Of a stretch of 64,000 nucleotides of DNA, positions 39,399-63,493 are shown piece after piece. Within the stretch, counting starts at the first letter, position 1; each line of letters begins with the position of its first letter. The notes under the pieces are model-generated. The model saw nothing but the letters and a program-made list of their open reading frames with translations. It was not told the origin of the DNA and searched no databases. A program made the translations under genes and the position numbers. The stretch spans positions 17,520-81,519 of the IMG/VR virus record IMGVR_UViG_3300033121_001080; one strand, given 5' to 3'. Origin of the DNA: a virus (taxonomy: Duplodnaviria > Heunggongvirae > Uroviricota > Caudoviricetes).

Positions 39399-39689
39399 TC
39401 AATTATATATTTCAAACTCTTCGGATTTAACGATGAATCCAAAATCACCATCTATACTAAAAAAATAATATGTAAATTTTTGACCAGCAATTCCATTAAA
39501 TAGCACTAAAAATCTATCATCCAAATCAATTTCCCAGTCTACAACAGTATTCTTTTTTACCCAAGAAATAGCTGGTGATTTATCTACATATACAGGTTTT
39601 ACACATTTATCTATATCCATGCCACTTTTATCATACACTCTAACTGCTGGAAGTACCATTGTTCCGGATTTTATTGTTACTATATTCAT
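39399..39689 (-). CDS. hypothetical protein, paralog 1 of a tandem pair
   Basis: 96 aa. TMVLPAVRVYDKSGMDIDKC...LDDRFLVLF...YYFFSIDGDFGFIV. Confidence 0.5.
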   Translation of the reverse strand: MNIVTIKSGTMVLPAVRVYDKSGMDIDKCVKPVYVDKSPAISWVKKNTVVDWEIDLDDRFLVLFNGIAGQKFTYYFFSIDGDFGFIVKSEEFEIYN

Positions 39690-39707: not shown

Positions 39708-40004
39708 TTAAACAATTATATAATCTCTATCAACTATAAATCCAAAATCACCGTCTAATTGAAAAAAGTAATACACATCTTTTCCTAATTGTGACTTAAA
39801 CAAAACGGTGAATCTTTCATCTAGGTCAACCTGCCAATCTAAAGTAGCTGTTAACTGTAGCCATTCCGTACGTTTTGATCTATTTACATTGGCTGGTAGA
39901 ATACATCTATCTACATCAAACCCACTTCTATCGTGTACACGAATTGCTGGTAGTACCACAGTTCCACGCTTTATCGTTGCTGTATCCATAATTATTATTT
40001 TCAT
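39708..40004 (-). CDS. hypothetical protein, paralog 2 of a tandem pair
   Basis: About 98 aa from MKIIIMD.... GTVVLPAIRVHDRSGFDVDRC...LDERFTVLF...YYFFQLDGDFGFIV. The longer frame overlaps tRNA-Gly. Confidence 0.5.
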   Translation of the reverse strand: MKIIIMDTATIKRGTVVLPAIRVHDRSGFDVDRCILPANVNRSKRTEWLQLTATLDWQVDLDERFTVLFKSQLGKDVYYFFQLDGDFGFIVDRDYIIV

Positions 40005-40009
40005 TATGT

Positions 40010-40082
40010 AAGCGGACAGCGGGATTTGAACCCGCGACATCTACTTTGGCAAAGTAGCATTCTAGCCACTGAATTATGCCCG
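40010..40082 (-). tRNA. tRNA-Gly (anticodon GCC)
   Basis: Acceptor GCGGGCA/TGTCCGC. Anticodon stem CTACT/AGTAG, loop TTGCCAA. T-arm GCGGG-TTCAAAT-CCCGC. Confidence 0.8.
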
Positions 40083-41618: not shown

Positions 41619-42242
41619 TCACGCGCTTTTTACTAATTTATATCTTTTAGCCCATTTACGGACGGCATTATCACTTACTCCAAATTGTCTACCTAACTCA
41701 GACCAATTATGTTTTTCTATAAGTAATTGCAATTCTTCTTTTGTTGGACGTTGTACTTTTCTTCTATTTAATTTATCTTTATATCGCCAATTTTTATTTT
41801 TATCATACTTGTAAGATGTTGGTCTACATTCTTCTGAGCAGTATCGTTTTTGTTTATTAAATGTTTTTAAGCTGTTTTTGCAAGTCTTACATTTTCTATC
41901 TAATGCTGGAGTTCTATATGGTTCTGTTTTTATTTGCTCATATTTAACATCAAATGTAGAATCAAATACTGCTTGTATTAATCCAGCTTCAATTTCTCTA
42001 TGACAATTTGCACAAACTAATATACATTTTTTTAATTCTTCTACAATTATGTTCCACGTTGTTGGGTTGGCTCGAATTTTTCCAAATCCAAATTTTTTTT
42101 GTTCTGGATTTAAATGATGAAATTCTAATGCTTCATTACATTTATTATAACCACAACAAATACATTTGCCACCCATGGCGTTAACCATATAAGATTTTGT
42201 ATCTTTTCTCCATTTTTTAACTCTATCAGACGATATACTCAT
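41619..42242 (-). CDS. HNH homing endonuclease with C-terminal DNA-binding region
   Basis: 207 aa. CICCGYNKC...EFHHLNPEQK...CANCH. C-terminal GRQFGVSDNAVRKWAK. Confidence 0.8.
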   Translation of the reverse strand: MSISSDRVKKWRKDTKSYMVNAMGGKCICCGYNKCNEALEFHHLNPEQKKFGFGKIRANPTTWNIIVEELKKCILVCANCHREIEAGLIQAVFDSTFDVKYEQIKTEPYRTPALDRKCKTCKNSLKTFNKQKRYCSEECRPTSYKYDKNKNWRYKDKLNRRKVQRPTKEELQLLIEKHNWSELGRQFGVSDNAVRKWAKRYKLVKSA

Positions 42243-45143: not shown

Positions 45144-45881
45144 TCAGTTTTCTTTCACAAATCTATTATCTTTTATGGATCTAATAGATTTTGGATCAAT
45201 TTTATGCTTTTTAAGATGCTTCCGTACTGCGTTATCACAAACTCCGAGTTCCATCGAAACCTGTAGATAACTGGAGTTTTTGATTTTTTCAATTAAATCA
45301 TTAATTGATGGCCAGTTTACTTTAATTCTAGCTGTTCCGGCACATTTATTTGAACAATATAGTTGATTGTCACTTTTCAATGAAGTAAATTGTTTTTTAC
45401 ATATCAAACAATCTTTATTTTCTTGAAAATTTACATCTAAACTTTCTTCGTCAAATCTACGTTGTATTCTTTCTTGATAATGAATTTCTCTATGACAATT
45501 TGAACATAATAATTGACATTTTTTAAGTTCAATAACTAATCGATCCCACGAAATGCAATAAGCGTCTGCAATTCCAAATTCTTTTTGAGTCGGATCTAGA
45601 TGGTGAAAATCAAATGCGTCTGGACATTTATTATATCCACACAACGTACATTTTCCACCTAAAAATTCTATTGCTCGTTTTTTTACATTCCATATACGTC
45701 TATTAGTAACGCATATTTTACACATTAATGCAGATTTTCCATGTGCAGCAGGAATAAACTTTTTTCCACATTTGCAAATCATGATAACTCCTTGGTTATC
45801 TATAAGTATCATGATTTGAACCAAAACCGTCAAAGTAGTCCCGCTGAGATTTGAACTCAGAACCTTCGGTATATCTACCAC
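45144..45881 (-). CDS. HNH homing endonuclease with C-terminal HTH-like region
   Basis: 245 aa. CKCGKK, CTLCGYNKC...DFHHLDPTQK...CSNCH. C-terminal LGVCDNAVRKHLKK is similar to the 41619 gene. Confidence 0.8.
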   Translation of the reverse strand: MVDIPKVLSSNLSGTTLTVLVQIMILIDNQGVIMICKCGKKFIPAAHGKSALMCKICVTNRRIWNVKKRAIEFLGGKCTLCGYNKCPDAFDFHHLDPTQKEFGIADAYCISWDRLVIELKKCQLLCSNCHREIHYQERIQRRFDEESLDVNFQENKDCLICKKQFTSLKSDNQLYCSNKCAGTARIKVNWPSINDLIEKIKNSSYLQVSMELGVCDNAVRKHLKKHKIDPKSIRSIKDNRFVKEN

Positions 45882-46284: not shown

Positions 46285-46647
46285 TTACCTTAATTTATCT
46301 ATAATATAATGTCGTAATCTGTGACAATTACTACATCTCAATTGGCATTTATCCAATTCCTTTTGAATTTCTGCCCATCTATATATAGCTTTTCCGCTAA
46401 TTTTAAAGCTTTTTTGGGTGGGGTCTGTGTGGTCGAAGTCAAAGACGACTGGCGGGTATTCTTTTTCGCAGTCAACACATTTACCACCCAAATAATCTAC
46501 AGCTTTCTTTTTTACTTCTGCTGCCCGAGTCCGTTTAATACAAATATCACACTTTACTCGTTGATCTTTATATTTTGGATTTGGAACATATTCAGCACCA
46601 CAGTCACAGTTATATTTAATTGTCATGAAGTTCTCACTGTAGTTCAT
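46285..46647 (-). CDS. HNH endonuclease (small)
   Basis: 120 aa. CDCGAEY, CDIC, GGKCVDC...DFDHTDPTQK...CSNCH. Confidence 0.75.
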   Translation of the reverse strand: MNYSENFMTIKYNCDCGAEYVPNPKYKDQRVKCDICIKRTRAAEVKKKAVDYLGGKCVDCEKEYPPVVFDFDHTDPTQKSFKISGKAIYRWAEIQKELDKCQLRCSNCHRLRHYIIDKLR

Positions 46648-52097: not shown

Positions 52098-53774
52098 TCA
52101 AGAGATGGATTTAAGCTCGACAAAAACTCGCGGATTATCAGGGGCAGCTAATAATATTGTAGAAAGTAATTCTGTTAATTCAGCTTCAGTTGCAAACGAA
52201 TCATCAAATTTATATGACATGTCATAAACTATAAAATACTCACCGGTAGTTGGATCTTGCCAGAATGAATTAATCGTAGGTGCCTCGATATCAGCATTTT
52301 TGTTCAATGTGCTTATATCAGCATCCATTTCGTCCTGTGTAACTGGAAAATTTTGTGTAAATGTAAATTGCCACTTCTGTTTTTGTTGACTTAACGCCGT
52401 ATCAAAATATCCGTACTTTGCATAGAAGTAATCTACAGGAATTGTAGTTAAATGCTGTATAGGTGGAAATATACGAACATTTGTAATCTTGTTTAATAGT
52501 TCCATGGACGCCAATGATCTACCAGTATATACTGATTTTATTATTTCTGACGGCAATTCCAATCCTTCGATCAAGGATTTAATGACATTTAACTGCAACC
52601 CAACTGATGATAGTATTTCGATGTAATTGGCCACTCCAACATCATGTGTTGTTTGTGTTGCTGTAGTTAATATATTATTAGTTTTGGCTCCGGTCACAAC
52701 TTGTGGAGAATAGATTCCATCTAAGTGACCTTCTACTATATGCTTATTTGGGCCGGAATATCCAGATGCTATTTGAAAATATGATATTCCCAACGGAAAT
52801 GCTATATTAATGTAATAATATTCCGTTTCTGTAGATCCCAAAGTATAACTTCCCGGTGGCTTTCGTCCCGGTGGCAACTTATACCGGAACCCATCCGATG
52901 TTATAACTGCGTTTGGGTATAATGCTTGTAGCGTCGTTTGGGGTATAATTTCAATTGGACCGAGTTCTTGTGTCGTCAATTGACCGTTAACATATTTTTC
53001 ATATACAGATTCCATTACTATAGAATTGAGTGGAATCTTGCCGGTTAATGTGATAATATCCGGAATTCTTGCATCTTCAGCTACAATAGAATTATTTATT
53101 TGATTCGTATACCATTTCGTTGTATCAGTAATGCCGCTTAAGTCTGCTCCGTCTACATACTTGGAATATTTCGATAACATCGTACTACTGAATATATCCA
53201 ATCCCGGTAAACTGATTCCAGAACCTCCCGGTATTTTGTCCACCACGTTCGAAAGAGTCTTCAAACTGACTGCAAGAGCCGCCAGCCCCGCTAGGAGTGG
53301 CATCGTTTGGCCCAAGATGCGGGCTTCCTGCATCGCTACAATCTGAGAGGCGTAAGAACCCACCGCCGTCTTTGCGGCGTCTGCTACTGGCAATCCGCCC
53401 AACAAGATAGATTCCACCGGAATGACCGGTGACAATTTAGTTGGATCAATTGTCGGAATACTTACTACCGCCGAACCTACTGCACCATTTATAGTTGCCG
53501 ATGGATCTGGTAAATCTATAGATGGTAGTTGAAATCCGGGGTCAGCCTTATTAATTTCTGTTTCAACTTCATTTATTGTTGAAGTTGGAATTTCAGGCAC
53601 ATCAACTAAATTAGTTTTGGGAATAACTTCGTGTGGAGACAACGGCATTATATTTGCCGGTGCCGGGGAGATTGATACTATATTAGTACCATAAACCTGA
53701 ACCGACTCATTTGGAATCAGTTCAGGTAATTTGGTTTTCAACTTATCTTTGTCGCTGTCCTTATAAATACCCAT
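52098..53774 (-). CDS. large hypothetical protein (558 aa), possible virion/ejected protein
   Basis: Pro/Thr/Ser-rich N-terminal third, an Ala-rich hydrophobic segment, no catalytic motif. Confidence 0.5.
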   Translation of the reverse strand: MGIYKDSDKDKLKTKLPELIPNESVQVYGTNIVSISPAPANIMPLSPHEVIPKTNLVDVPEIPTSTINEVETEINKADPGFQLPSIDLPDPSATINGAVGSAVVSIPTIDPTKLSPVIPVESILLGGLPVADAAKTAVGSYASQIVAMQEARILGQTMPLLAGLAALAVSLKTLSNVVDKIPGGSGISLPGLDIFSSTMLSKYSKYVDGADLSGITDTTKWYTNQINNSIVAEDARIPDIITLTGKIPLNSIVMESVYEKYVNGQLTTQELGPIEIIPQTTLQALYPNAVITSDGFRYKLPPGRKPPGSYTLGSTETEYYYINIAFPLGISYFQIASGYSGPNKHIVEGHLDGIYSPQVVTGAKTNNILTTATQTTHDVGVANYIEILSSVGLQLNVIKSLIEGLELPSEIIKSVYTGRSLASMELLNKITNVRIFPPIQHLTTIPVDYFYAKYGYFDTALSQQKQKWQFTFTQNFPVTQDEMDADISTLNKNADIEAPTINSFWQDPTTGEYFIVYDMSYKFDDSFATEAELTELLSTILLAAPDNPRVFVELKSIS

Positions 53775-54235
53775 TACTCAACCCCATCATCATCTTCTTC
53801 ATCATCTAATGGTTCATCATCGCGTGAAATCTGTTCGAAAAATTTTCTCAATGCTTCTAAATCAGCAGCATTAATTCCGGACGATGGATCATTCGAAATC
53901 TTTTCAAATAATTCTTCAATAGTTGCTGCGGTGTGTTTGCCATCTAACGACTTATAAAGAACTCGGCCCTGTGGAAGTCCTCTATTAAATTGCTGCTCTT
54001 TCAAAACATCATTGAACGAAGTTTCCATATGATTCAACTGCATGTTTGTAATGAGTTGTTGTAATAGATAATCTATCTTACCAGTCTTTGAAGCTACTTC
54101 GTCTACTGTCTGCTTTGTTGCTGTGGTGTCGCGTATCACTATAATTGATATGATAAGAGACGCCGCCCACTGTACACAAAATACAATTAAAAATACCAGT
54201 AGAAGTGTATCAGTAGAAATAGAAATGGAACTCAT
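53774..54235 (-). CDS. membrane protein with acidic C-terminus
   Basis: 153 aa. N-terminal TM helix. Poly-Asp/Glu tail. Confidence 0.5.
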   Translation of the reverse strand: MSSISISTDTLLLVFLIVFCVQWAASLIISIIVIRDTTATKQTVDEVASKTGKIDYLLQQLITNMQLNHMETSFNDVLKEQQFNRGLPQGRVLYKSLDGKHTAATIEELFEKISNDPSSGINAADLEALRKFFEQISRDDEPLDDEEDDDGVE

Positions 54236-54244
54236 ATGACCTCT

Positions 54245-54436
54245 TTAATTTGGATTGAAATTTTTGATGAAGTAATGACTTAATAAAAAGATGCTGCTTC
54301 CTAAATAGTATGCTATTACCATAAGTAATAGGTTTGAATTGAAAAGCGCAGCAGATGATAATATAACTGCCCAGTCTGCAGACCACGAATACGTAACTTC
54401 TAACGCTTTATCAACGTTCAATCCTAAAATAGCCAT
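54245..54436 (-). CDS. small membrane protein
   Basis: 63 aa with two TM segments. Confidence 0.4.
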   Translation of the reverse strand: MAILGLNVDKALEVTYSWSADWAVILSSAALFNSNLLLMVIAYYLGSSIFLLSHYFIKNFNPN

Positions 54437-54440
54437 GATA

Positions 54441-54728
54441 TTATCCTTCTTTGTGTTTTAAATGTTCTTCAACAAGAGCATAATATCTTTCTTTCCATTC
54501 GTTAAGATTTTTCTCTAACTCAACGACTTTATTTTCTAAGAATTCTATGCGATCTTGCAGTGACTCATTTAACTCTTTCATATCAGACAATACATTATCA
54601 GATTCTTTGTATTGTTTTGTATTTTGACGAAGAGATTTATCTAACCACTTTACAATGATACCACCAACTGCTGCGACAACCAATCCAATTATAGATGTTT
54701 GTTCATTTAAAAGGTCTGTCATAGTCAT
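54441..54728 (-). CDS. membrane-anchored coiled-coil protein
   Basis: 95 aa. N-terminal TM helix followed by a coiled-coil. Confidence 0.45.
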   Translation of the reverse strand: MTMTDLLNEQTSIIGLVVAAVGGIIVKWLDKSLRQNTKQYKESDNVLSDMKELNESLQDRIEFLENKVVELEKNLNEWKERYYALVEEHLKHKEG

Positions 54729-54761
54729 AAAATTTCCATATGGAATGGCTATACAACCCTT

Positions 54762-55190
54762 TTATAACCCGTCATGCAGCAATCCTAACCTCAAGTATAT
54801 CCATGCGTTAATTAAAAATAGTGATATAAAAATATATACATGTTCTTGACAGGGAGGATTATCGTCACAACCAAATGTAACTAAAACAAAGAATAAAATC
54901 CAAGAAATGGCCATTAAAAATGACATGAGCCGTCTATATTTAATTTTAGTACTGTACCATGCTGAAAATTGAAGCACACTAGCCACAGCAAACGCCAGTC
55001 CAATTGTGACAGCGGGCACATACCATGTATCCATTGTATAATTATATGGGACTATTACATTAGTGATTAATATATTAATTCCAATACACATTGATATTAA
55101 TGTACTAAAGATCTCCACCATGGTTGGCGAACATGTAAATATTTCTTTAAATCTATTGTGACTGTACAACAAATGTACAAATTCTGACAT
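54762..55190 (-). CDS. polytopic membrane protein
   Basis: 142 aa with four predicted TM helices. Confidence 0.5.
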   Translation of the reverse strand: MSEFVHLLYSHNRFKEIFTCSPTMVEIFSTLISMCIGINILITNVIVPYNYTMDTWYVPAVTIGLAFAVASVLQFSAWYSTKIKYRRLMSFLMAISWILFFVLVTFGCDDNPPCQEHVYIFISLFLINAWIYLRLGLLHDGL

Positions 55191-55242: not shown

Positions 55243-55605
55243 TTAGTCTAGTATTTCTATATCAATTAAACTGACCAAAAAACCAGACTGATAAACATCA
55301 ACTAGTCGAATATCGTCTAGCGTAGATTGATCTGGTAATGCTATGAAAAACAATGTTACTTTGGTAGAATCATCTGTAAAATGACCCAATATCTGTTTGG
55401 GGTAAAAAATCCATGGTTCTTTTATTTCAATTAATGAATTCTCAACAACATCAGCATCGGAAATAGAAGTTTGATAATCTGGAGTAAAAATGACTATCTT
55501 TTCCATGGTTGCGCCAAATGGTGAATCGGGAAGTTTGGCTGGTAATAGTGCAGCTTTTTCCTTAATCGCTAGTTTTTTGGCGTTTTTAATATCTTCAATA
55601 TTCAT
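55243..55605 (-). CDS. hypothetical protein
   Basis: 120 aa. Confidence 0.45.
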   Translation of the reverse strand: MNIEDIKNAKKLAIKEKAALLPAKLPDSPFGATMEKIVIFTPDYQTSISDADVVENSLIEIKEPWIFYPKQILGHFTDDSTKVTLFFIALPDQSTLDDIRLVDVYQSGFLVSLIDIEILD

Positions 55606-55606
55606 A

Positions 55607-56071
55607 TTATTTCCTATCGTCTAGAACTTTCTTAGTGTGTTTGCAACCGCGTGTAATTCCACCCTGATATTTCCATGCAGGACAATTACACGACAGAGAA
55701 CCGTCCTTGTAAGTCAATACTTCATATTGAGTTTTTCCTTTACTGGATTCAACCATTGTCGTATATGCAATTTCTCCGTGACCAGAAATATATTCACCTT
55801 CGCGTGAATCTACTTCGTATACATCTTGTTCTAGACAAATGAACCCATTAATATCTTTGTTCCAATCTGGTTTGTCAATTAGTGCAACAAACCACGATCC
55901 ATCCGGACGCACTAAATATTGGGTATCATTAAATACCCATTCATGTGTCGTTTTAACACCTTTACCAACACCAGCAAAATAATTTTGGTAGCTATGATAT
56001 ACTGCTTTAGAATTAGTTGGAATTACAGTTGAACCAATTTTAATTCCGAATGTACCTTTAATTTTGTTCAT
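55607..56071 (-). CDS. hypothetical protein
   Basis: 154 aa. C-terminal CNCPAWKYQGGITRGCKH. Confidence 0.45.
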   Translation of the reverse strand: MNKIKGTFGIKIGSTVIPTNSKAVYHSYQNYFAGVGKGVKTTHEWVFNDTQYLVRPDGSWFVALIDKPDWNKDINGFICLEQDVYEVDSREGEYISGHGEIAYTTMVESSKGKTQYEVLTYKDGSLSCNCPAWKYQGGITRGCKHTKKVLDDRK

Positions 56072-56337
56072 AATATTACTATAACATCCTTTGTTTGGAC
56101 AACGAATCCTCGTTCGCCGTCATATTCGTTACTTTGATCGTGTAGCATAACCCATATAATATTTTGTTTACGAAATTCACTTTCTGAATTAATACGCTGG
56201 GAATCCAAAGTCCAATCAACATTAGTAATTCTTTTGTCTGCTGGGAATATATCACACAATTCCTCCCACGACCTAACTTCATCATTACCCCACCGCTCAA
56301 ATACAACAGTACCAGCCGGGATCATAAGTTTACTCAT
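56068..56337 (-). CDS. hypothetical protein
   Basis: 89 aa. Confidence 0.4.
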   Translation of the reverse strand: MSKLMIPAGTVVFERWGNDEVRSWEELCDIFPADKRITNVDWTLDSQRINSESEFRKQNIIWVMLHDQSNEYDGERGFVVQTKDVIVIL

Positions 56338-56657
56338 ACTCTCATATAATGGGTAAAAGGTCCATAATGACCAACCGCTCTAACAGAATCATCTGTTACG
56401 GGTCTGCCGAATTTATCGCTCCAATCCCATTTTGCATGATTTTCGATGTTGCCGAAGTACCATTTAAGATTTGGAGCCTGCGCTGATTTCTTTCCATAGA
56501 TAGATCCATCACCAGTATCAACGAAGTAACGTACTTCATTATTGATCAACACTCGTACATATCGCCGTCCAATTTGATAATGTACGTGATTCTTTTCCTG
56601 TTGATCGGTAAAGATCTGTTTGGTAAATGCCGTCAGCAATTCATTTGAATATGTCAT
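56334..56657 (-). CDS. hypothetical protein
   Basis: 107 aa. Confidence 0.45.
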   Translation of the reverse strand: MTYSNELLTAFTKQIFTDQQEKNHVHYQIGRRYVRVLINNEVRYFVDTGDGSIYGKKSAQAPNLKWYFGNIENHAKWDWSDKFGRPVTDDSVRAVGHYGPFTHYMRV

Positions 56658-56701
56658 GTTAGGTCCATTCAGTTCTGTTCAATGTAACACATTGGATTTT
56701 G

Positions 56702-57073
56702 TTAGTCAATAGGTACATAAAAAGTTTTAGATATAAAAAATGTTGGAACAGGAATCTCCGTTTTAATAAGTACATTATCTATATCCTTCAGAGATACAGT
56801 AGACACCCAAGAAAATCTAGCTGGATCTTCCAAATCTATTAACTCTGCCAATTTACTATTTATATTCAAGATATGATCATCAGTAAAATACCATGTCGAA
56901 AATAGAGATCGATATATATCCAGTCGAATTTGTGCAGACCATTTGAGTCCCCAAGAATTTTCATATTTTTTTGGGTCTAGTATGTTGTATGGTCGTATAC
57001 TAGTGCTGACGAAGTCCGGATTCCACAGACATGGATATACTATCGCGCCAGCGATTGTTTTAAATGTTTTCAT
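56702..57073 (-). CDS. tandem paralog family member 1 (most divergent)
   Basis: 123 aa. AIVYPCLWNPDF...WYFTDDHILNINSKLAELIDLE shares the N-terminal xxYPxx and central (F/W)YF(D/T)(E/D) blocks of the array. Confidence 0.5.
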   Translation of the reverse strand: MKTFKTIAGAIVYPCLWNPDFVSTSIRPYNILDPKKYENSWGLKWSAQIRLDIYRSLFSTWYFTDDHILNINSKLAELIDLEDPARFSWVSTVSLKDIDNVLIKTEIPVPTFFISKTFYVPID

Positions 57074-57408
57074 ATTTTAACTTCCTCTATATCCTGTATA
57101 CTAACCATACAACCAAGCTGCTCTTCAGTATTCAATATAAGTAACGTATCTTCAGTTGATAGCGATAGATGGAGCTGTCCCGATGGTCCCGAAGCAGGCA
57201 CATGTATTAGATCATGAGTAATAATTTGGGACTCATCAAAATAAAATACTTCTGTACATATTTTTAAGCAATCAAGATAATCAGAAGCATATGTTTGAAA
57301 ATCAACATTAAATAACGATATAGTATATCGCGCAACAAACAAAACAGGATCAATTCCTATTGCATATTTGAACGGATACACAGTAGAGTCTTTTTTAATC
57401 AATTTCAT
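57070..57408 (-). CDS. tandem paralog family member 2
   Basis: About 112 aa. TVYPFKYAIGIDP...EVFYFDESQIITHDLIHV. Confidence 0.5.
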   Translation of the reverse strand: MKLIKKDSTVYPFKYAIGIDPVLFVARYTISLFNVDFQTYASDYLDCLKICTEVFYFDESQIITHDLIHVPASGPSGQLHLSLSTEDTLLILNTEEQLGCMVSIQDIEEVKI

Positions 57409-57751
57409 GATATGATTCTTTACTGCAAATAAAACCAAAATACGAACAGTGTGTTTCGGGAATCTTTTCTAGTTTAACGACTGTAATATCATGTTCTCTC
57501 CACCAAAAAGTATTCTTTTTTGAATTCTGAAAAATATTTTCTGGAGTAATAATATCTTCTTCCGAAAAATAAAATTCTATCTTTGGATAATAAACATGTG
57601 CAACCATTAGTTTATCACGCGACGGAATCGGCGTATGGAAATTAATGACGGACCATGTCGGATCATATAGAGTAGCAGCATATGTGCCACCATTGCGACT
57701 TCCCTGCAAGATGCAAGGAACGATACTAACATTGGGTCGAAGTTCGTACAT
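57395..57751 (-). CDS. tandem paralog family member 3
   Basis: 118 aa. IEFYFSEEDIITPENI...WWREHDITVVKLEKIPE...YFGFICS. Confidence 0.55.
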   Translation of the reverse strand: MYELRPNVSIVPCILQGSRNGGTYAATLYDPTWSVINFHTPIPSRDKLMVAHVYYPKIEFYFSEEDIITPENIFQNSKKNTFWWREHDITVVKLEKIPETHCSYFGFICSKESYHEID

Positions 57752-58152
57752 TATATAATCTCTTTCGTGTCGTCGATATTTTGAAATGAAACTATAAAAC
57801 CGTAATACACTGGAAAGTTTGTGTTCACTTTTGTATCGGCTCTATATTCTAATTTTACAACTTCATAATTTCCCTTCCGATACCATGCCAAATATTCATT
57901 CGATTCTTGATCAATTAAATTCAGTGGTATAAAATTAGATTCGTCAAAATAAAACTCATCTGATACATAATAATGATACGCATCATTTATATCACTGGTC
58001 ATCTCTATAAATGCAACTGCTATATTTCCTACCATATCTTCATACGGCTTCTCCGGAGTATATGTCCAAATACAATACGTTCCATTTCTTGTATTTTCAC
58101 ATATAATAATCGGATATATACGAACGCCTTTATTAATGAATAACATTTTCAA
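57751..58152 (-). CDS. tandem paralog family member 4
   Basis: 133 aa. RIYPIIICEN...EFYFDESNFIPLNLID...WYRKGNYEVVKLEYR...YYGFIVSF. Confidence 0.55.
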   Translation of the reverse strand: MKMLFINKGVRIYPIIICENTRNGTYCIWTYTPEKPYEDMVGNIAVAFIEMTSDINDAYHYYVSDEFYFDESNFIPLNLIDQESNEYLAWYRKGNYEVVKLEYRADTKVNTNFPVYYGFIVSFQNIDDTKEII

Positions 58153-58545
58153 TTATCTCACCTCTATATCCGAGAATTTTGCTAAAAATCCTAAGTACTG
58201 TCGTCCATTTGGTAGTTTCTCCAATCGTACAGCAAACCTATTTGATCTCCACCAATCCCCCTTCTGATCATTATCAGTTCTTAACACAAATACTCCCATA
58301 ATATGCACTTGATCTTTTATAAGATCAATACAAAAATCTTCTCTTACTACAAATTCAAAAATACAGGCAGTTTGTTCAAGCTGCGGCATAAAAAATTTCA
58401 TTCTAACATAATCGGGCTGCCTATAAACATCTATATTTTCTAGATCAAATAAACCAATTTTATACGTACCATCATCTTGTAATTCCATTATGATAGGATG
58501 TATAATCGCACCGGCAATTAAGTATTGTTTTCTTATAATGTTCAT
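58153..58545 (-). CDS. tandem paralog family member 5
   Basis: 130 aa. IIHPIIMELQDDGTYKIGLFDLE...WWRSNRFAVRLEKLPNG...YLGFLAKFSDIE. Confidence 0.55.
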   Translation of the reverse strand: MNIIRKQYLIAGAIIHPIIMELQDDGTYKIGLFDLENIDVYRQPDYVRMKFFMPQLEQTACIFEFVVREDFCIDLIKDQVHIMGVFVLRTDNDQKGDWWRSNRFAVRLEKLPNGRQYLGFLAKFSDIEVR

Positions 58546-58550
58546 AATAA

Positions 58551-58973
58551 TTAAAAAACTACTTCATGGCATATATCCAAATATTCCATAATAAACCCGT
58601 AATATTGAGTACCAACTTCATCAATACGAGTCTCGTCAGTTTTATGTAATCGTATAACAAGATATCTTATATTATCGCACCACCAAACCGTCGATCTATC
58701 AACGCTGTGACATTTAATATCATCAACATCAACACGACAACATAAATTTGGTAGGCTATCAATATAAAATTTTTTTTCGACAATAAAAGCATGACAATAT
58801 TCATCTTGTTGATCATCGGGTGACCTACCAAGACTATACCATTGAGAAAAATAGCCGTTTTTATATTGAAATGACGCCATAGTATACGCATACCCAGAGA
58901 GCTTATGTGATCTCTCTAATATAACAGGCCAAATTTTTATACCTCGCGGTACGTAACAGTTAGTAACATTCAT
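58551..58973 (-). CDS. tandem paralog family member 6
   Basis: 140 aa. IKIWPVILERS...KKFYIDSLPNL...WWCDNIRYLVIRLHK...YYGFIMEYLDI. Confidence 0.55.
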   Translation of the reverse strand: MNVTNCYVPRGIKIWPVILERSHKLSGYAYTMASFQYKNGYFSQWYSLGRSPDDQQDEYCHAFIVEKKFYIDSLPNLCCRVDVDDIKCHSVDRSTVWWCDNIRYLVIRLHKTDETRIDEVGTQYYGFIMEYLDICHEVVF

Positions 58974-58983
58974 AATTAATAAT

Positions 58984-59376
58984 CTAAAAGTCGTTTAAGT
59001 CTGCTTCGATAATATCTGTATTTTTAGCAAGAAATCCAAAATAATGTTTTGTACTGCCGGGCACTAAATCCAATCGTACAGCCGAATATATACTGGAATC
59101 AGCCCACCAAACAACGCCAACGTCTGGATGATAATTTCCGGTCAAATTAACAAGATCAATGATATCAGCACTGTTAAAGTAAAACGGAGCCTTAACAGTT
59201 ACCAAATATTCAGGAAACTTATATATTGGCATATATGGTGCCGGAGCAGCTATTATAGTCTCGTTAGTTTCACTGATCGGGTCAAATATACCAATCTTGT
59301 ACGTGAAATTATTATCCCGTAATTTCATTACGAGTGGATATACTTCCGCACCGCTGTCTACATAAAGATCAGTCAT
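58984..59376 (-). CDS. tandem paralog family member 7
   Basis: About 131 aa from MTDLYV.... EVYPLVMKLRDNNFTYKIGIFDP...FYFNSADIIDL...VWWADSSIYSAVRLDLVPG...YFGFLAKNTDI. Confidence 0.55.
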   Translation of the reverse strand: MTDLYVDSGAEVYPLVMKLRDNNFTYKIGIFDPISETNETIIAAPAPYMPIYKFPEYLVTVKAPFYFNSADIIDLVNLTGNYHPDVGVVWWADSSIYSAVRLDLVPGSTKHYFGFLAKNTDIIEADLNDF

Positions 59377-59773
59377 ATCCCTCCTCGGTAATAATATATT
59401 TGTTTTTAACAAAAAACCCATAATACAGATGATTTGCCATTTCTACTTTGTGCAATTTAACAGCCGTATATATACTAGGATCATTCCACCACATATCAAT
59501 CTCACTCGGATCATGATTTCCAATTAACAATCCCAGCGGCACAGTATCATCACTAGTAAAATAAAATTTTTCTGTGGCTTTAACTTTAGTAACAAGTCCT
59601 ACGTATCTTGAAATATATGGTAAATCAGTCTTATTTGGATCATCATTATACAATATCTCATGAATAGGAAATGACGGATTCAACGATCCAATTTTATATT
59701 CAAATGAATTATTCAACACTTTAAATATAAGTGGATAGATACTTGTATTTTTGAGTATATAGAATTGCGTCAT
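59369..59773 (-). CDS. tandem paralog family member 8
   Basis: 134 aa. SIYPLIFKVLNNSFEYKIGSLNP...FYFTSDDTVPL...MWWNDPSIYTAVKLHKVE...YYGFFVKNKYI. Confidence 0.55.
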   Translation of the reverse strand: MTQFYILKNTSIYPLIFKVLNNSFEYKIGSLNPSFPIHEILYNDDPNKTDLPYISRYVGLVTKVKATEKFYFTSDDTVPLGLLIGNHDPSEIDMWWNDPSIYTAVKLHKVEMANHLYYGFFVKNKYIITEEGYD

Positions 59774-60168
59774 AAACTCATCACTTTAATCAAATATTTC
59801 TGATCAACAAGAAATCCATAATTAAGATACTTAAACCCCAAATTTAATTTTAAATTAACAGCTACATATAATGTTGGATTATACCACCACGCATCAATTT
59901 TAGTGGGATCATAATTTCCAACTAACTGATCCAATAGTACTATATTATCTTCATGAAAATAAAACGGTTTTTCTATTGTAACCTTAACAGAACTCACCTC
60001 ATATAGCGGCATATATGGCCAGCCGTCATCCATATTAGTATCCTGTTTCGGTCCAAATGATTCTATTTTCGGATCAAACGAACCAATCTTGTATTTAAAA
60101 TATTTAAAATTAGATAACGTCTTAAATACAAGCGGATATATTTCCGAATGTGCAAGTATACAAAGCAT
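59770..60168 (-). CDS. tandem paralog family member 9
   Basis: About 132 aa from MLCILAHS..., preceded by a GAGGAG RBS. EIYPLVFKTLSNFKYFKYKIGSFDP...FYFHEDNIVLL...AWWYNPTLYVAVNLKLNLG...NYGFLVDQKYL. Confidence 0.55.
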   Translation of the reverse strand: MLCILAHSEIYPLVFKTLSNFKYFKYKIGSFDPKIESFGPKQDTNMDDGWPYMPLYEVSSVKVTIEKPFYFHEDNIVLLDQLVGNYDPTKIDAWWYNPTLYVAVNLKLNLGFKYLNYGFLVDQKYLIKVMSL

Positions 60169-60629
60169 AACTCTCCTCGTTCTAATCAATGTAACAAAGT
60201 TGTATTGATTACGCAAGACCCAATTTACTTTTTTTCCGAAATTTTTTGAAATACCCACCGAAAACATCAAAATCTCTACCATATAATTACTGTTTAATTG
60301 TAAAGATATTCTAGCAGAATTTACCTATCCCATGCAAGCTCGTGGACTAGGCCGGAGTCCCATTGACACGGCAACTTTTTCCTAGTCACTATTAATTATC
60401 GGCCCTTTTTGCCGCGTCATTATGACACGGTTTAAATGGCACGAGCTTTGCAACATCGCAAATCCTGTGCCAAGCGGCGTGGCATAAGATTTGCTCTAGA
60501 GCACGTCGAGGCTATAGAAGTATGAAGAAAGTTTATCAATATTGGGTATTGACCTTCCCTCTCCCCTGTTGTATTATACTCTCGCCTGAAGTGAACGGGC
60601 CAAGTAAGAACCAAAGCAAGTGAGGATGT

Positions 60630-60845
60630 ATGAAGCTCGATTCCGCCACCACGACGCTGAACGTTTCCGAGGTTGACGCGGGCTCGCTGGAAGTGGTGAA
60701 GGTTCAGGAAGTGATGAAGGAAGGTCAGTGGGCGAAGTATGTTGTGCGGTTCACGGTGGACGGTGTGGAGATGGAAGGCACTCAGCAGGGGTGGCAGCAG
60801 GCCGATAGCTGGGACGATCAGATCACCGATTGCTGGACGGCCTGA
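60630..60845 (+). CDS. small GC-rich hypothetical protein (paralog of 61169..61546 N-terminus)
   Basis: 71 aa. LEVVKVQEVMKEGQWAKYVVRFTVDGVEMEGTQQGW. RBS GAGG. Followed by a strong terminator. Confidence 0.55.
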   Translation: MKLDSATTTLNVSEVDAGSLEVVKVQEVMKEGQWAKYVVRFTVDGVEMEGTQQGWQQADSWDDQITDCWTA

Positions 60846-60864
60846 CCGCTCCCCGCAAAATTCA

Positions 60865-60897
60865 AGCCAGAGGCTAACCCCTCTGGCTTTTTTGTGT
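60865..60897 (+). terminator. rho-independent terminator (plus strand)
   Basis: AGCCAGAGG-ctaacc-CCTCTGGCT followed by TTTTTTGTGTT. Confidence 0.75.
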
Positions 60898-61168
60898 TGC
60901 TACTTGGGCCGTGTCATTTTGACACACCGATGACAGTTTGTATCTTTTCCACATGGCATGAATAATGCTCTAAACTTTTTTTTGCAAATGTTGTGCCACA
61001 CTTGCCTATTTGGTTAAAGCACGCGCCATGGCATGACATTTGCGGAATCTGCAATAATTGTACCATGGAATTATGAAGAAAGTTTATATTGACTATTCTA
61101 TTGTGTTGTTGTATTATTGTCTTGCGCGAAGTAAGCGCCACGACAACCCCGCAGCAAGCGAGAATCCT

Positions 61169-61546
61169 ATGCTTAACCTGACTGGCATTCCCTCAGAGGT
61201 TGCGCTGGCCGAAGTGACTGAGTTTGACCGGGGGGAAGTGCTGGAAGTGCTTGAGGCCGGACAGTGGTATGCCTATGAATGCACCTTCCGCTATGGTGAT
61301 GTGGTGTGCAGCGGAACCATTCAAGGCGAGGGGCGGAACGGTGAGTATAACGATATTATCACCGATGTTACTCCCCTTCCCCGCAATGAGCAGGACCGGC
61401 ATGTGCCGGAATTGGATTGTGTGTTGGCGTACAGCGATAACTACGAGCGTCATCTGTGCCAGTTTGACGGTTCGTTGTACGTTGTCGAGATGCGCCGCAA
61501 CCATGGTGACAAGCACTTTAATGTCGTCAGCGGTTGGGCGCTCTAA
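61169..61546 (+). CDS. GC-rich hypothetical protein (paralog of 60630..60845 with extra C-terminal domain)
   Basis: 125 aa from MLNLTG.... VLEVLEAGQWYAYECTFRYGDVVCSGTIQGEG. The in-frame upstream MKKVYIDYSIVLLYYCLA... leader (from 61073) could instead be part of the protein. Confidence 0.5.
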   Translation: MLNLTGIPSEVALAEVTEFDRGEVLEVLEAGQWYAYECTFRYGDVVCSGTIQGEGRNGEYNDIITDVTPLPRNEQDRHVPELDCVLAYSDNYERHLCQFDGSLYVVEMRRNHGDKHFNVVSGWAL

Positions 61547-61605
61547 CCACTAGACAGGGGAGGGGAATCGCCCCTCCCCACTTGACGTTAGCTTGAGGTG
61601 TCAAA

Positions 61606-61866
61606 ATGTCTCGCTCTTGGAATCCCGACACGCTGGAATTCTCCCGTCCCTGTCCTCATTGCTCCACTGAGGTGACTCACACCGTTTCTTATTCCCCCAC
61701 TTGGGATGACAACGGTGTCGGTGCCGAGGATGTAGAGTGCAGCGTGGATACCTGCGAGGAATGCGGCAAGGAATGCACTCTCCCCACCGAACAGGCGCAG
61801 GAACTTGCCGACAAGGAAGTGCAAGGCGCCGCAGAATTTCGTCGGGATTGGCGGAATCAATACTGA
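61606..61866 (+). CDS. small Zn-ribbon protein
   Basis: 86 aa. CPHCSTE...C-x-VDTCEECGKEC. RBS GAGGTG. A terminator hairpin follows at 61886-61920. Confidence 0.55.
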   Translation: MSRSWNPDTLEFSRPCPHCSTEVTHTVSYSPTWDDNGVGAEDVECSVDTCEECGKECTLPTEQAQELADKEVQGAAEFRRDWRNQY

Positions 61867-61885
61867 CAGCCGAAGAAAGCAAGAA

Positions 61886-61920
61886 CCGGGCCAGAACATC
61901 GGCCCGGTTTTCTTTGTATG
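61886..61920 (+). terminator. rho-independent terminator (plus strand)
   Basis: CCGGGCC-agaacatc-GGCCCGG followed by TTTTCTTTGTATG. Confidence 0.65.
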
Positions 61921-61997
61921 TCTGTGGTATTCATGAAGTTACCTTGGACTCTATTGGTTAGAATAGAATCCAAGGTATTGTATTGTGTGCGGTACTA

Positions 61998-62309
61998 TCA
62001 CCGCTGCATGGTGCCTTCCAGATCGTTGCGCCGTTCCTCGCGTTCAGCCTCTCGTGCCATCTTGAGGCACAGACGGAAACGCTTCCGATCCCCCTTTGGA
62101 GTAAGCGGGAAAAAATACGCTACGCTCTTGGCAGGCCGATACTTGTCAAGTCTCACACTCGCATCGAGTGAGAAATCATTGTACCCGATTTCAAAACACA
62201 GACCACCGTTGAAACGTTTGGTGCCATATCGGTTATGTTTGCTTTTTCCGATCTGCTCGCCATCTTCGATTTTCTTGGCAACGGACATCCAGAAATCAGA
62301 TTCCTTCAT
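61998..62309 (-). CDS. hypothetical protein
   Basis: 103 aa. Last gene of a three-gene minus-strand operon. AGGTAAC RBS. Confidence 0.5.
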   Translation of the reverse strand: MKESDFWMSVAKKIEDGEQIGKSKHNRYGTKRFNGGLCFEIGYNDFSLDASVRLDKYRPAKSVAYFFPLTPKGDRKRFRLCLKMAREAEREERRNDLEGTMQR

Positions 62310-62318
62310 GATAGTTAC

Positions 62319-62495
62319 CTGTCCCCCACAATATAGCGGTTGAAGTAGTCGAGTGAACCCTCGTTGCCAATAGCATTGAGGGAATTGATATCAGCCTGAG
62401 ACAAATCGGACGGAATGGGATCAGCAGCAAGGCATTTCTCACATGTCTTGAAGTTTTCGTACACAGGCTGACCGCACTTGCAAAGCTTTGCCACT
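62319..62495 (-). CDS. small Zn-ribbon protein (59 aa)
   Basis: MAKLCKCGQPVYENFKTCEKCLAAD.... Found by manual translation, below the ORF-track cutoff. Confidence 0.4.
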
Positions 62496-62503
62496 GTGTT
62501 CTC

Positions 62504-62686
62504 CTAGCGTGAGTATTTACGAATATACGCCCAAAGCTTCTCCGGGTCAACCCCCAACACGTAGACTCCCACCTCGCACGATTCCACTACCAGATCGTCG
62601 GCTAGCATCTTTCGTGCCAGAATGGGGTCCACCGACAGAACTTCATACTTTGGTGCGTATCGAACAATCACCTTTGCTGCTGCCAT
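62504..62686 (-). CDS. small hypothetical protein
   Basis: 60 aa. First gene of the minus-strand operon. Confidence 0.45.
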   Translation of the reverse strand: MAAAKVIVRYAPKYEVLSVDPILARKMLADDLVVESCEVGVYVLGVDPEKLWAYIRKYSR

Positions 62687-62834
62687 ACAATGCCTCTTGA
62701 GTGAAGTGGAGCCTCTTTAGCTCTAATCGGAGTGGTCAGAAGCCACCGGTAAAACCCGGCGAAAGAACTCTTTTCTAACAATGCCTAGGCATTCGTCATA
62801 TCTGGCTTGCAGACACTCTCCACATGCTGAATAC

Positions 62835-62863
62835 AACCTAACAGCCTCGATTGCGCCTGTCAA
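62835..62863 (-). promoter_or_regulatory. sigma70-like promoter (minus strand) TTGACA-N17-TAGGTT
   Basis: Reverse complement reads TTGACAggcgcaatcgaggctgtTAGGTT. Divergent from the plus-strand promoter at 62911. Confidence 0.45.
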
Positions 62864-62910
62864 GTGAAAGTTTCTTCATAATCAATGATTGTAACAATTA
62901 GGTAACATAC

Positions 62911-62938
62911 TTGACTTTCGGTGGGAATGATGTAGATT
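62911..62938 (+). promoter_or_regulatory. sigma70-like promoter (plus strand) TTGACT-N16-TAGATT
   Basis: ttgactttcggtgggaatgatgtagatt, 25 bp upstream of the ATG at 62964. Confidence 0.55.
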
Positions 62939-62963
62939 AGAGGTAACTCAAACGGAGTAGTAT

Positions 62964-63236
62964 ATGGCCGATTTCTGTAATTCACTCATGGATGACCGCA
63001 GCCGACTCGAACAGGAAAACGAGGCGCTGCGTCAGGAGATTGCCGATCTCAGGCGTTCCATCGTGGACCTTGCTGTGGGGTCCGTCATGGACATGGGCAA
63101 CAGCGAATGTCTACGTGTCCAGATTGCCACGCTGACCCGTGAACGTGACGAGGCCAGAGCCGCTCTTGCCAATAACCCACATGGATGTTATTATCAGGAG
63201 CATCGTTGCATCTTCTGTGGAAAGGCTGACGAATAA
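62964..63236 (+). CDS. coiled-coil protein with C-terminal CxxC
   Basis: 90 aa. RLEQENEALRQEIADLRRSIVDL...CIFCGK. RBS GGAG. Confidence 0.55.
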   Translation: MADFCNSLMDDRSRLEQENEALRQEIADLRRSIVDLAVGSVMDMGNSECLRVQIATLTRERDEARAALANNPHGCYYQEHRCIFCGKADE

Positions 63237-63493
63237 TGTACAATTCAATGGATACCGCTCCCAGAGACGGTACATGCGTATTGCTCAATCGCAATCCTCC
63301 TCCCGAAGTTCTTGCAAAGATTAGACTTGGAGAGGTTCCGCCTGTGATTGGTTATTGGGGATGCCCAAACCAATTGAACGTGAGCAAGCCAAGATGGAGA
63401 TACGCACATGATTCCACGGTAATTAGCAGCGAGCGTTTCATATATGGGTGGCTTCCGCTTCCGAAACCATTCAAGCATCACACAGCACCATGA
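63236..63493 (+). CDS. hypothetical protein
   Basis: 85 aa. Start overlaps the upstream stop (TAATG). Pro-rich. Confidence 0.5.
   Translation: MYNSMDTAPRDGTCVLLNRNPPPEVLAKIRLGEVPPVIGYWGCPNQLNVSKPRWRYAHDSTVISSERFIYGWLPLPKPFKHHTAP

Follow-up and report, generated by a model that had tools for sequence, protein, structure and literature searches.

The ASFV MGF110/360/505 families and the poxvirus host-range families are made up of tandem paralogs that have diverged and lie in variable parts of the genome; they act in host range or immune evasion. In phage T4, the neighbouring genes for IPI, IPII and IPIII encode small, variable, dispensable internal proteins that vary strongly among related phages and combine packaging with counter-defence, IPI* being an inhibitor of GmrSD; they bear a common N-terminal capsid-targeting sequence, which is cleaved after Glu (L/I-x-E). 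In SPN3US, 17 genes of the 20-member paralog family B (gp83, gp138-154, gp161, gp237) are consecutive, all members are presumed head proteins, PSI-BLAST served to recognise the members, and mass spectrometry detected family B proteins in virions (PMC5694885). Amplification of counter-defence genes has been described for T4 tifA vs. toxIN (PMC9391042) and, driven by SegB, for T6 vs. Septu (PMC13096335), and poxvirus K3L is given as a genomic accordion by Elde et al. 2012, as cited in PMC13359090. Large phages also swap anti-defence islands, for instance by island replacement in Schizotequatroviruses (PMC12028318).

In this work, we analysed an array of small genes in a 64,000-nt stretch of DNA (the window) from a tailed phage known solely from metagenomes. 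This is a large myovirus, since it encodes a baseplate wedge protein and its nearest relatives are phages of 160-484 kb. The preliminary description had reported nine consecutive, tightly packed minus-strand ORFs, and the ORF coordinates (56702-60282) bear this out. With corrected starts, the genes occupy 56702-60168 at the head of a long leftward gene block, with overlaps of 4, 8, 1, 14 and 4 nt and gaps of 10, 5 and 6 nt between them; no terminator-like sites were found on the coding strand within the array. The features of the locus are as follows:

59770..60168, minus strand: m1, 132 aa, firm member; the ORF runs to 60282, the likely start is Met39 at 60168
59369..59773, minus strand: m2, 134 aa, firm member; protein modelled by AF2
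58984..59376, minus strand: m3, 130 aa, firm member; the ORF runs to 59421, the likely start is Met16 at 59376
58551..58973, minus strand: m4, 140 aa, firm member; 7 Cys, insertion in the first hairpin
58153..58545, minus strand: m5, 130 aa, firm member
57751..58146, minus strand: m6, 131 aa, firm member
57395..57751, minus strand: m7, 118 aa, firm member
57070..57408, minus strand: m8, 112 aa, degenerate member without the WW block; ORF to 57438 from TTG
56702..57073, minus strand: m9, 123 aa, perhaps a very diverged member; homology not proven
60169..60629, no strand: intergenic control region, divergent, separating the array from a GC-rich block; highly variable across strains
60179..60216, minus strand: bracketing direct repeat, upstream copy, core TGTTACATTGATTAGAAC; 11 nt ahead of the m1 start
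56672..56709, minus strand: bracketing direct repeat, downstream copy, core TGTTACATTGAACAGAAC; 15 nt ahead of the d1 start, overlapping the m9 stop

Shine-Dalgarno sites placed the starts at 60168 (m1, Met39), 59376 (m3, Met16), 58146 (m6) and probably 57408 (m8). For m1, AGGAGAG precedes the ATG at 60168 by 5 nt and the paralog alignment starts at the same ATG; since the Shine-Dalgarno site points to Met39, the 170-aa m1 is an ORF artefact. The m3 start is supported by GAGGAGGG ahead of the ATG at 59376. The product size, first put at about 120-145 aa, was thereby corrected to 112-140 aa.

Within the control region lie an operator-like palindrome, which in most strains reads CGTGTCATAATGACACG, extra TGACACGG half-sites and the inverted repeat I2; the region occurs in two haplotypes with about 9-11 differing sites. 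A sigma70-like plus-strand promoter lies at 60549-60577, while on the array strand no consensus promoter was recognised and no phage-specific motif was found. The bracketing repeat (family D6, 38 nt, 71% identity) has a core motif that occurs only twice in 64 kb, the pattern having been defined after the pair was seen; in the related contig L017 (see below), the d1 homologue has no copy upstream.

Family membership was assessed by leave-one-out profiles, pairwise BLAST, hhalign, 2000 shuffles, alignment and an identity matrix. The profiles clearly recovered m1 (E = 2.9e-16), m2 (1.6e-22), m3 (6e-25), m4 (1.7e-8), m5 (5.4e-7), m6 (8.5e-13) and m7 (1.5e-11). In pairwise BLAST, m3 formed a hub joined to m1, m2, m5 (2.6e-6) and m7, and m7 was linked to m6 (1e-4); m4 by itself gave no significant pairwise match. 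As a left-out sequence, m8 reached 12.6 bits, making it the best non-training ORF of the window, and this score was attained by 0/2000 shuffles; hhalign aligned m8 end to end over 107 columns (P = 3e-5 to 3e-4), and the WW block and some of the first hairpin are missing from the protein. As to m9, it was missed by the leave-one-out profile, its score was attained by 207/2000 shuffles (p about 0.1), on par with unrelated downstream genes, hhalign gave P about 0.01, and the AF2 model built from the nine-protein alignment had a pLDDT of only 58.7. The database relatives of m9 are solely its own strain alleles, and membership is hinted at only by where the gene lies, its size and composition, and two motif-like blocks (IVYPCL, WYFTDDHIL). 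That m9 is nevertheless a genuine coding gene follows from strain contig L003, where a pair of mutually compensating frameshifts preserves the frame.

Judged by these comparisons, the array comprises seven firm members (m1-m7), one degenerate member (m8) and one unsupported one (m9), such that the original count of nine paralogs with common blocks holds for m1-m7 and, in degenerate form, for m8, while m9 drops out on the shuffles and hhalign. Pairwise identity was measured at 14-41% instead of the 25-40% first estimated. Neighbouring members are 28% identical vs. about 20% for distant ones (Spearman rho -0.38, p = 0.02); this greater likeness of adjacent copies upholds the earlier proposal of tandem duplication followed by deep divergence.

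The array proteins are soluble, mildly acidic (pI 4.3-6.1) and aromatic-rich. Their N-termini differ (MLCILAHSE, MTQFYILKN, MTDLYVDSG, MNVTNCYVP and others), form strand 1 in the model and contain no conserved targeting or cleavage motif. The AF2 model of m2, obtained from a 7-sequence alignment, is mostly beta (pLDDT 81.0, pTM 0.78). Strand columns are more conserved than the remainder (mean 3.75/7 identical vs. 2.54/7). The residues P, Y, F, W, L, G and F are invariant in the family, and the conserved positions (IYP, YKIG, FYF, WW, YYGF), located in predicted strands, are without exception hydrophobic, aromatic, Gly or Pro; no conserved polar residue that could serve catalysis was found among the paralogs. 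Two long loops vary in length and sequence from paralog to paralog. Such a conserved core with variable loops suggests a non-enzymatic binding scaffold, the family being a set of binding proteins with one rigid scaffold and differing surfaces, an idea that rests on this one model.

Searches for relatives returned the array itself. No significant match to the array proteins was obtained in Pfam, PHROGs, PADLOC, NCBIfam or PDB sequences, including the known anti-defence and defence-related families and solved structures among them, as the preliminary description had anticipated in assigning no characterised family. A word-indexed search of 5.8 billion proteins gave 4 matches and an exhaustive profile search of 1.84 billion representatives gave 7, all of them the array's own proteins (93-100% identical). 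The tblastn search against 50,697 phage genomes yielded nothing at E <= 1, and the IMG/VR search yielded no matches. Taken together, these sequence searches indicate that the array is a multigene family private to a single lineage of huge tailed phage.

The sole related phage contig found, L017, is distant and 10.7 kb long. It retains d1, d5, the membrane genes, a 558-aa gene, YAcAr and Band_7 at 34-68% identity, while the slot of the array holds NADAR and RNA-ligase genes; the family profile matched none of the L017 ORFs. Among near-clonal strains, in turn, the array is the most variable spot, with 12.9 differences per kb vs. 0.4 per kb in the backbone (in L003 alone, 25/1520 vs. 1/5289), arranged in mosaic patches. 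The absence from L017, together with this hot spot of recombination and diversity, shows that the array locus is dispensable and exchangeable, in agreement with its initial portrayal as a rapidly diverging family.

The strain alleles of m1 differ at 9-11 clustered sites within 59943-60053, whereas m2 is identical across all strain contigs. In L008, m2-m4 are 100% identical, the m5 allele is 93% identical with a 9-nt N-terminal deletion, and the m6 allele has only 66% aa identity and retains the scaffold motifs. All nine genes have open frames in all strain alleles, with in-frame indels in m5 and m6. Pooled over the few strain alleles, dN/dS comes to about 0.55, being 0.54 for scaffold and 0.55 for loop columns, and the highest value, 0.77, belongs to the m6 allele pair; dS is likewise raised in the variable patches. 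Values below 1 together with raised dS point to older alleles that were imported and are under relaxed purifying selection, and positive selection is not shown. Since dN/dS is also no higher in loops, diversifying selection is not demonstrated.

We tentatively regard the array as a panel of accessory host-interaction factors, i.e., inhibitors of host defence or host-takeover factors. One gene of about 130 codons would have been tandem-duplicated several times long ago, giving rise to the present strongly diverged copies. Overlapping or near-abutting stop and start codons, with a ribosome-binding site for each gene, point to co-transcription and translational coupling. The products are small, soluble, cytoplasmic and mostly beta, and the copies may be tuned each to a different target or target variant. 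Precedents for such a panel are the amplification of counter-defence genes by phages (PMC9391042; PMC13096335) and the swapping of anti-defence islands among large phages (PMC12028318). The array proteins show no likeness in sequence or structure to known anti-defence or takeover proteins. We also note that dN/dS below 1 without an excess in loops, as well as the head-protein nature of the giant-phage precedent for tandem paralogs (PMC5694885), speak against such a panel. Amplification with divergence, taken at first as the signature of an arms race, is not specific to it, given that the consecutive paralogs of SPN3US are presumed head proteins (PMC5694885).

Like genomic accordions, the array is a case of tandem amplification at an accessory locus of a large virus genome prone to recombination, and by this analogy it could be the long-term outcome of an accordion event whose copies then diverged. 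Accordions are, however, recent, near-identical, unstable and polymorphic in copy number, whereas the array has no surviving nucleotide-level repeats, a constant gene number and order, and deeply diverged copies. Tandem Repeats Finder reported no repeat array, and no recent DNA repeats were seen, the similarity being motif-level over <= 39 nt at 62-82% identity. Gene number and order are the same in all eight strain contigs (L001-L008) where covered, most of them spanning part of the array, which excludes an active accordion. A recent adaptive accordion was rejected on the lack of near-identical tandem DNA repeats and of copy-number variation across L001-L008, a small sample of short contigs.

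The ASFV and poxvirus families are likewise lineage-specific, diverged tandem paralogs in a variable region, differing between strains; the hosts and protein families are entirely different, and the host-interaction role demonstrated there is inferred for the array. Just as anti-defence islands do, the array fills a backbone slot that holds other cargo in L017 and shows raised recombination between strains, but its cargo is one family expanded in place and not a set of unrelated genes of diverse origin. The array is a new multigene family of an already known kind.

The main alternative, which we consider unlikely though still realistic, is that the proteins are packaged virion components, such as internal head, ejection or minor decoration proteins, the diverged copies reflecting either a giant capsid that is structurally plastic or cargo that is injected along with the DNA. 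Comparable cases would be SPN3US family B, the inner-body paralogs of phiKZ and the T4 internal proteins. The small size, solubility and mild acidity of the proteins and the large-myovirus nature of the phage agree with this. T4 IPI*, both packaged and anti-restriction, shows that packaging and host interaction may overlap, and both T4 and the array have small, variable, dispensable proteins from adjacent genes of a large myovirus; unlike the T4 internal proteins, the array members have neither a conserved N-terminal targeting sequence or cleavage site nor homology to them. The nearest precedent, SPN3US family B with gp138-154 consecutive (PMC5694885), shares with the array a long run of consecutive, strongly diverged paralogs in a giant myovirus; in this and phiKZ-like families of head paralogs, member number varies greatly between related phages and T4 counterparts are missing. 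Profile search, tblastn and PHROGs revealed no sequence relationship between the two, and the array is located in an accessory, tRNA-rich region instead of a head module and belongs to one lineage rather than to a phage group. Moreover, the proteins have no homology to any virion protein family, the baseplate genes are about 50 kb away with tRNA, HNH and other non-structural genes in between, and L017 lacks the array while keeping the surrounding genes.

It is rather improbable that the array is an evolutionary leftover of an old duplication burst, its copies drifting with little or no function and slowly degenerating. The loss of the WW block in m8, the barely recognisable m9, a dN/dS that suggests relaxed constraint, the dispensability of the locus in L017 and the lack of conservation outside the lineage are all compatible with decay. 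However, nine intact frames persist in every strain allele, even through the double frameshift in m9 and the indels in m5 and m6, dN/dS lies well under 1, and the core residues are retained at 14-41% identity in a protein whose model folds confidently. Besides, phage genomes usually rid themselves of useless DNA fast.

It is very improbable that the array proteins work with the nearby membrane proteins in superinfection exclusion or lysis control. Four membrane proteins are indeed encoded at 53774-55190 on the same strand, but the array does not sit beside them, as had been stated, because four soluble-protein genes (d1-d4, about 1.5 kb) intervene; since L017 keeps the membrane cluster without the array, the two are not a fixed functional unit. 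Superinfection exclusion, one of the functions originally suggested, is unlikely because transmembrane segments and signal peptides are absent from all array members (highest 19-residue hydropathy <= 1.31). Finally, a diversity-generating retroelement or an assembly artefact of collapsed repeats, either of which might leave tight patches such as the 9 changes in 63 nt of m1 and about 22 in 85 nt of m9, is essentially refuted by the mixed substitution spectrum without adenine bias, the lack of a template-repeat copy amid DNA similarity that is only motif-level (<= 39 nt), the raised dS expected for recombination with older alleles, and the same gene order in independent JGI and Logan assemblies wherever they overlap.

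Returning to the panel of host-interaction factors, we may go one step further and suppose, as an unlikely extension, that the proteins represent an unseen fold born in this phage lineage, possibly de novo, and form a repertoire of binders, each directed against a different host immune protein or variant. If so, the array would be a phage counterpart of the immune-evasion multigene families of large eukaryotic viruses, in which the shuffling of alleles between strains refreshes the repertoire.

For large DNA viruses, tandem multigene families are one of the chief routes of adaptation to the host. The known phage cases are almost all fresh laboratory amplifications or virion paralogs, whereas the array is an old, diverged and intact expansion. 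Under either reading, the seven firm paralogs could be put straight into screens for binding partners. Should the copies prove to be head proteins, capsid plasticity of the SPN3US type would extend to an unrelated lineage of huge phages; should they inhibit host defences, the array would provide a new anti-defence scaffold and a natural example of an aged phage accordion.

The preliminary description of a nine-member array was largely right as to the array itself: nine ORFs follow one another on the minus strand at 56702-60282 (m1-m9, with m1 nearest 60282). Membership of the family, however, proved to be firm for seven (m1-m7), degenerate for m8 and unproven for m9. On the basis of Shine-Dalgarno sites and the paralog alignment, the starts were shifted for four genes (m1 to 60168, m3 to 59376, m6 to 58146 and, probably, m8 to 57408), giving products of 132, 134, 130, 140, 130, 131, 118, 112 and 123 aa for m1-m9. 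Some junctions overlap (by 4, 8, 1, 14 and 4 nt) and the others have short gaps (10, 5 and 6 nt), and no terminator-like sites were found on the coding strand within the array. We infer that the array genes are co-transcribed and translationally coupled.

The kinship of the members was evaluated by pairwise BLAST with a large search space, which linked m1, m2 and m3 at 1e-21 to 2e-17, m3 and m5 at 3e-6, m6 and m7 at 1e-4, and m3 and m7 at 4e-3, leaving m4, m8 and m9 unlinked to other members. When left out of the profile, m8 scored 12.6 bits; its alignment to the core profile runs from end to end (107 columns, P = 3e-5 to 3e-4), and none of its 2000 shuffles reached its score. These results make m8 a degenerate member, in which the WW block has been lost. 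As for m9, it was undetected by the leave-one-out profile, 207 of 2000 shuffles matched its score, and the unrelated controls d1-d5 (the next five genes downstream) did equally well; its AlphaFold2 model from the nine-protein alignment is of low confidence (pLDDT 58.7). Its unproven membership is based on position, size, composition and two motif-like blocks. Pairwise identity across the nine proteins, put at 25-40% in the preliminary description, measured 14-41%. Immediate neighbours share 28%, and members three or more places apart about 20% (Spearman rho -0.38, p = 0.02), a gradient that fits stepwise tandem duplication. At the DNA level, the similarity between paralogs is limited to motif-level remnants of at most 39 nt, which indicates no recent duplication or gene conversion.

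The statement that no characterised family could be assigned was borne out: searches of Pfam, PHROG, PADLOC and NCBIfam gave no model at the curated cut-off or with a convincing E-value, and PDB sequence profiles gave zero matches. A profile search of a 5.8-billion-protein collection returned four matches and an exhaustive HMMER search of 1.84 billion cluster representatives seven, all of them the array's own proteins at 93-100% identity; the database relatives of m9 were its own alleles alone. Among 50,697 phage genomes, tblastn with m3 and m6 gave no match at E <= 1; IMG/VR scans with m3 and with the 558-aa protein encoded downstream of the array (52098-53774) yielded no relatives, and the array region 56000-61500 had no megablast match among deposited phages. 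For the 558-aa neighbour, neither tblastn against phages nor a JGI metagenome scan with a two-sequence profile found a further relative. Deposited phages, searched with megablast and blastn, and E. coli genomes, searched with blastn, added no others. The family is new and extremely restricted, but large viruses with tandem multigene families are already known.

All nine proteins are soluble (highest 19-residue hydropathy <=1.31), mildly acidic (pI 4.3-6.1) and contain 11-18% aromatic residues. An AlphaFold2 model of m2 built from the seven-paralog alignment (pLDDT 81.0, pTM 0.78) shows seven or eight strands together with a pair of long irregular inserts, one near residues 31-65 and the other near 74-100. 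The conserved columns fall in the predicted strands (mean 3.75/7 identical vs 2.54/7 outside them). The model depicts mostly beta proteins with a predicted conserved hydrophobic core and variable loops. The residues invariant in all seven paralogs are P, Y, F, W, L, G and F, and the family alignment contains no conserved polar residue. This speaks for a scaffold whose surfaces vary rather than for an enzyme, and we infer a non-enzymatic binding function. An internal duplication of the two long hairpins (IYP...YKIG vs IY.AV...YYGF) was rejected, since sub-profiles of the N-terminal, middle and C-terminal parts matched one another in hhalign only at P = 0.12-0.54.

Eight near-clonal contigs from other samples (L001-L008) carry the locus at 95.8-100% identity, with the same gene set and order wherever they cover the array. 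Pooled totals, which count shared variants repeatedly, were 197 differences in 15,308 aligned bases (12.9 per kb) for the array vs 4 in 9,065 (0.4 per kb) for the downstream backbone; in single contigs the same comparison gave 25/1520 vs 1/5289 (L003) and 18/3467 vs 3/3776 (L002). The differences gather in patches, with 9-11 sites within 59943-60053 in m1, about 22 within 56944-57028 in m9, and 59 in the m6 of L008, an allele of 66% protein identity that retains IYP, FYFDES and AWY on a contig where m2-m4 are 100% identical. No reading frame is broken: the frameshifts in m9 form a compensated pair, and the indels in m5 and m6 are in frame. Hypermutation of the DGR type was rejected, as the substitution spectrum shows no adenine bias and there is no template repeat. 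The dN/dS comparison suggested in the preliminary description does not demonstrate positive selection: Nei-Gojobori values are 0.34-0.77 per gene and 0.55 pooled, with strand and loop columns equal. Together with the dS raised to 0.06-0.24 within the variable patches, they form the pattern that results when recombination brings in diverged alleles of older origin that are under relaxed purifying selection.

The 558-aa gene has one distant relative, P0009 (39% identity), on a 10.7 kb contig, L017. L017 carries same-order homologues of d1 (57%), d5 (36%) and three membrane-protein genes (34-40%), and also keeps, in order, the 558-aa gene and the flanking backbone genes YAcAr (49%) and Band_7 (68%). 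The array m1-m9 is absent, and the family profile matched none of the 43 ORFs of L017. Also absent are d2-d4 (55243-56337), the d1 and d5 homologues being adjacent at L017 4006-4891, so that no fewer than two distinct variable slots exist in the region. At its C-terminus (CNCPAWKYQGGITRGCKH), d3 resembles a SWIM-type zinc finger, though without a Pfam match. The array is a private, intact tandem family, and its locus is both accessory and a hot spot. Because the array paralogs (14-41% identity) have diverged as deeply as, or more deeply than, the backbone orthologues of the window and L017 (34-78%), either an old array was lost in the L017 lineage or change in the array is far quicker than in the backbone; of the two, quicker change is favoured, at least in part, by the strain data.

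The slot upstream of the d1 homologue (L017 2593-3992) holds instead an RNA ligase and a NADAR-domain gene, both of gene types linked to the reversal of damage inflicted by the host. Their presence fits a counter-defence cargo site upstream of d1. The L017 RNA ligase is 78% identical to window 21948-22481, and its gene position thus differs between the two phages. An 18-nt core, TGTTACATTGA-NN-AGAAC, inside a 38-nt match of 71% identity, has two copies in the whole window, just upstream of the m1 and d1 starts, so that the array is bracketed; the repeat is absent upstream of the d1 homologue in L017. It may be an insertion footprint or a shared leader, in a pattern defined after the pair was seen. 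As proof of insertion the 38-nt repeat was rejected, being short, two-copy and post hoc, though suggestive.

On its other side, the array, within a GC content of ~0.33-0.36, is abutted at 0.33 GC by a block at 60300-64000 where GC is 0.48 (the rise falls past 60.3 kb). Its small genes lie on either strand, and every one of them has a consensus sigma70-like promoter and a strong terminator to itself. Several independent assemblies place the block collinearly with the array, and neither deposited phages nor E. coli genomes contain a match to it; it may be a region of early genes or else an island that was acquired. One promoter module (ATGAAGAAAGTTTAT ... TTGAC(C/T)-17-TATTAT) occurs at 60514-60577 and 61065-61117 and, inverted, at 62859-62882; a copy precedes each of two small plus-strand paralogs at 60630-60845 and 61058-61546 (34% identity over 65 aa, E = 6e-6). 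A divergent intergenic, operator-like palindrome (60360-60430, 60898-60923) reads CGTGTCATAATGACACG in most strains, where the window has CCGTGTCATAATGACGCGG, and extra TGACACGG half-sites lie nearby; this is the most strain-variable stretch, with two haplotypes at ~9-11 differing sites. A 147-aa ORF at 63448-63891 (plus strand) has a lipoprotein-like signal (LLLLLACSP) and a HEMLHE metalloprotease-like motif. The JGI contig L002 departs from all others just past 60640, its positions 1-203 being a fragment with weak amidohydrolase matches, either through chimeric assembly or at an alternative junction, and four other contigs break at 62140, adjoining a 20-nt repeat (62123-62142). The independent Logan contig L001 (SRR32380191), identical to the window, has its position 1 at window 64000 and ends exactly there, near a strong terminator and repeat at 63874-63953, which suggests a repeat boundary or a physical genome end nearby.

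The window comes from a tailed phage of very large size. Up to ~60.3 kb, every long ORF lies on the minus strand, and the baseplate wedge protein (5104-7035) has its closest deposited relatives, at only 40-43% identity, in Microcystis phage Mel-JY01, the 484 kb uncultured phage LR756508.1 and Flavobacterium 'immuto' phages. A tmRNA lies at 17200-17539 (minus strand; tag ANAPLALAA, Rfam 101 bits), followed by 46 tRNA genes within 19175-50122, all on the minus strand with small ORFs between them. One, at 20241-20313 (minus strand), is of amber-suppressor type with anticodon CTA (ARAGORN call tRNA-Pyl; Rfam tRNA 51.5 bits). The window shows no sign of TAG recoding, and the merging of array genes through this tRNA was rejected: TAG is a normal stop in 12 of the 85 genes, reading it as sense gives no preferential ORF lengthening, and m3, the sole member with a TAG stop, is in a different frame from m4. 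Another tandem pair of small paralogs, a younger one, lies at 39399-39689 and 39708-40040 (minus strand; 51% identity over 90 aa). Among the tRNA genes are four HNH-type endonuclease-like paralogs, 36-46% identical:
32294-32827, minus strand, HNH-type endonuclease-like gene
41619-42242, minus strand, HNH-type endonuclease-like gene
45144-45881, minus strand, HNH-type endonuclease-like gene
46285-46647, minus strand, HNH-type endonuclease-like gene
In phage T6, homing endonucleases beside tRNA genes drive segmental amplification (PMC13096335), and by analogy the HNH-type genes may bear on the origin of the duplications in this genome.

The arms-race role proposed in the preliminary description is plausible yet unproven. 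Phages under selection amplify counter-defence genes (PMC9391042; PMC13096335), large phages exchange anti-defence islands (PMC12028318), and accordion-like expansion has been suggested as a general way for viral genomes to become large (PMC13359090); because of these precedents, the array products may play a role in host interaction or counter-defence. For the main rival reading, head proteins, an equally concrete precedent exists, since paralog family B of SPN3US has 20 members, 17 of them encoded by consecutive genes (PMC5694885), and the array products could be their counterparts. The array, however, lies far from the baseplate genes, within a tRNA- and HNH-rich region, its proteins have no conserved N-terminal targeting motif, and L017 does without it, although none of this is decisive. 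As regards the timing of expression, the T4-type late promoter (TATAAATA) showed no coding-strand enrichment, and the intergenic sequences contained no recurrent 9-mer. Confirmation of a binding or anti-defence activity, or of a fold that is truly new, would make the family far more significant.
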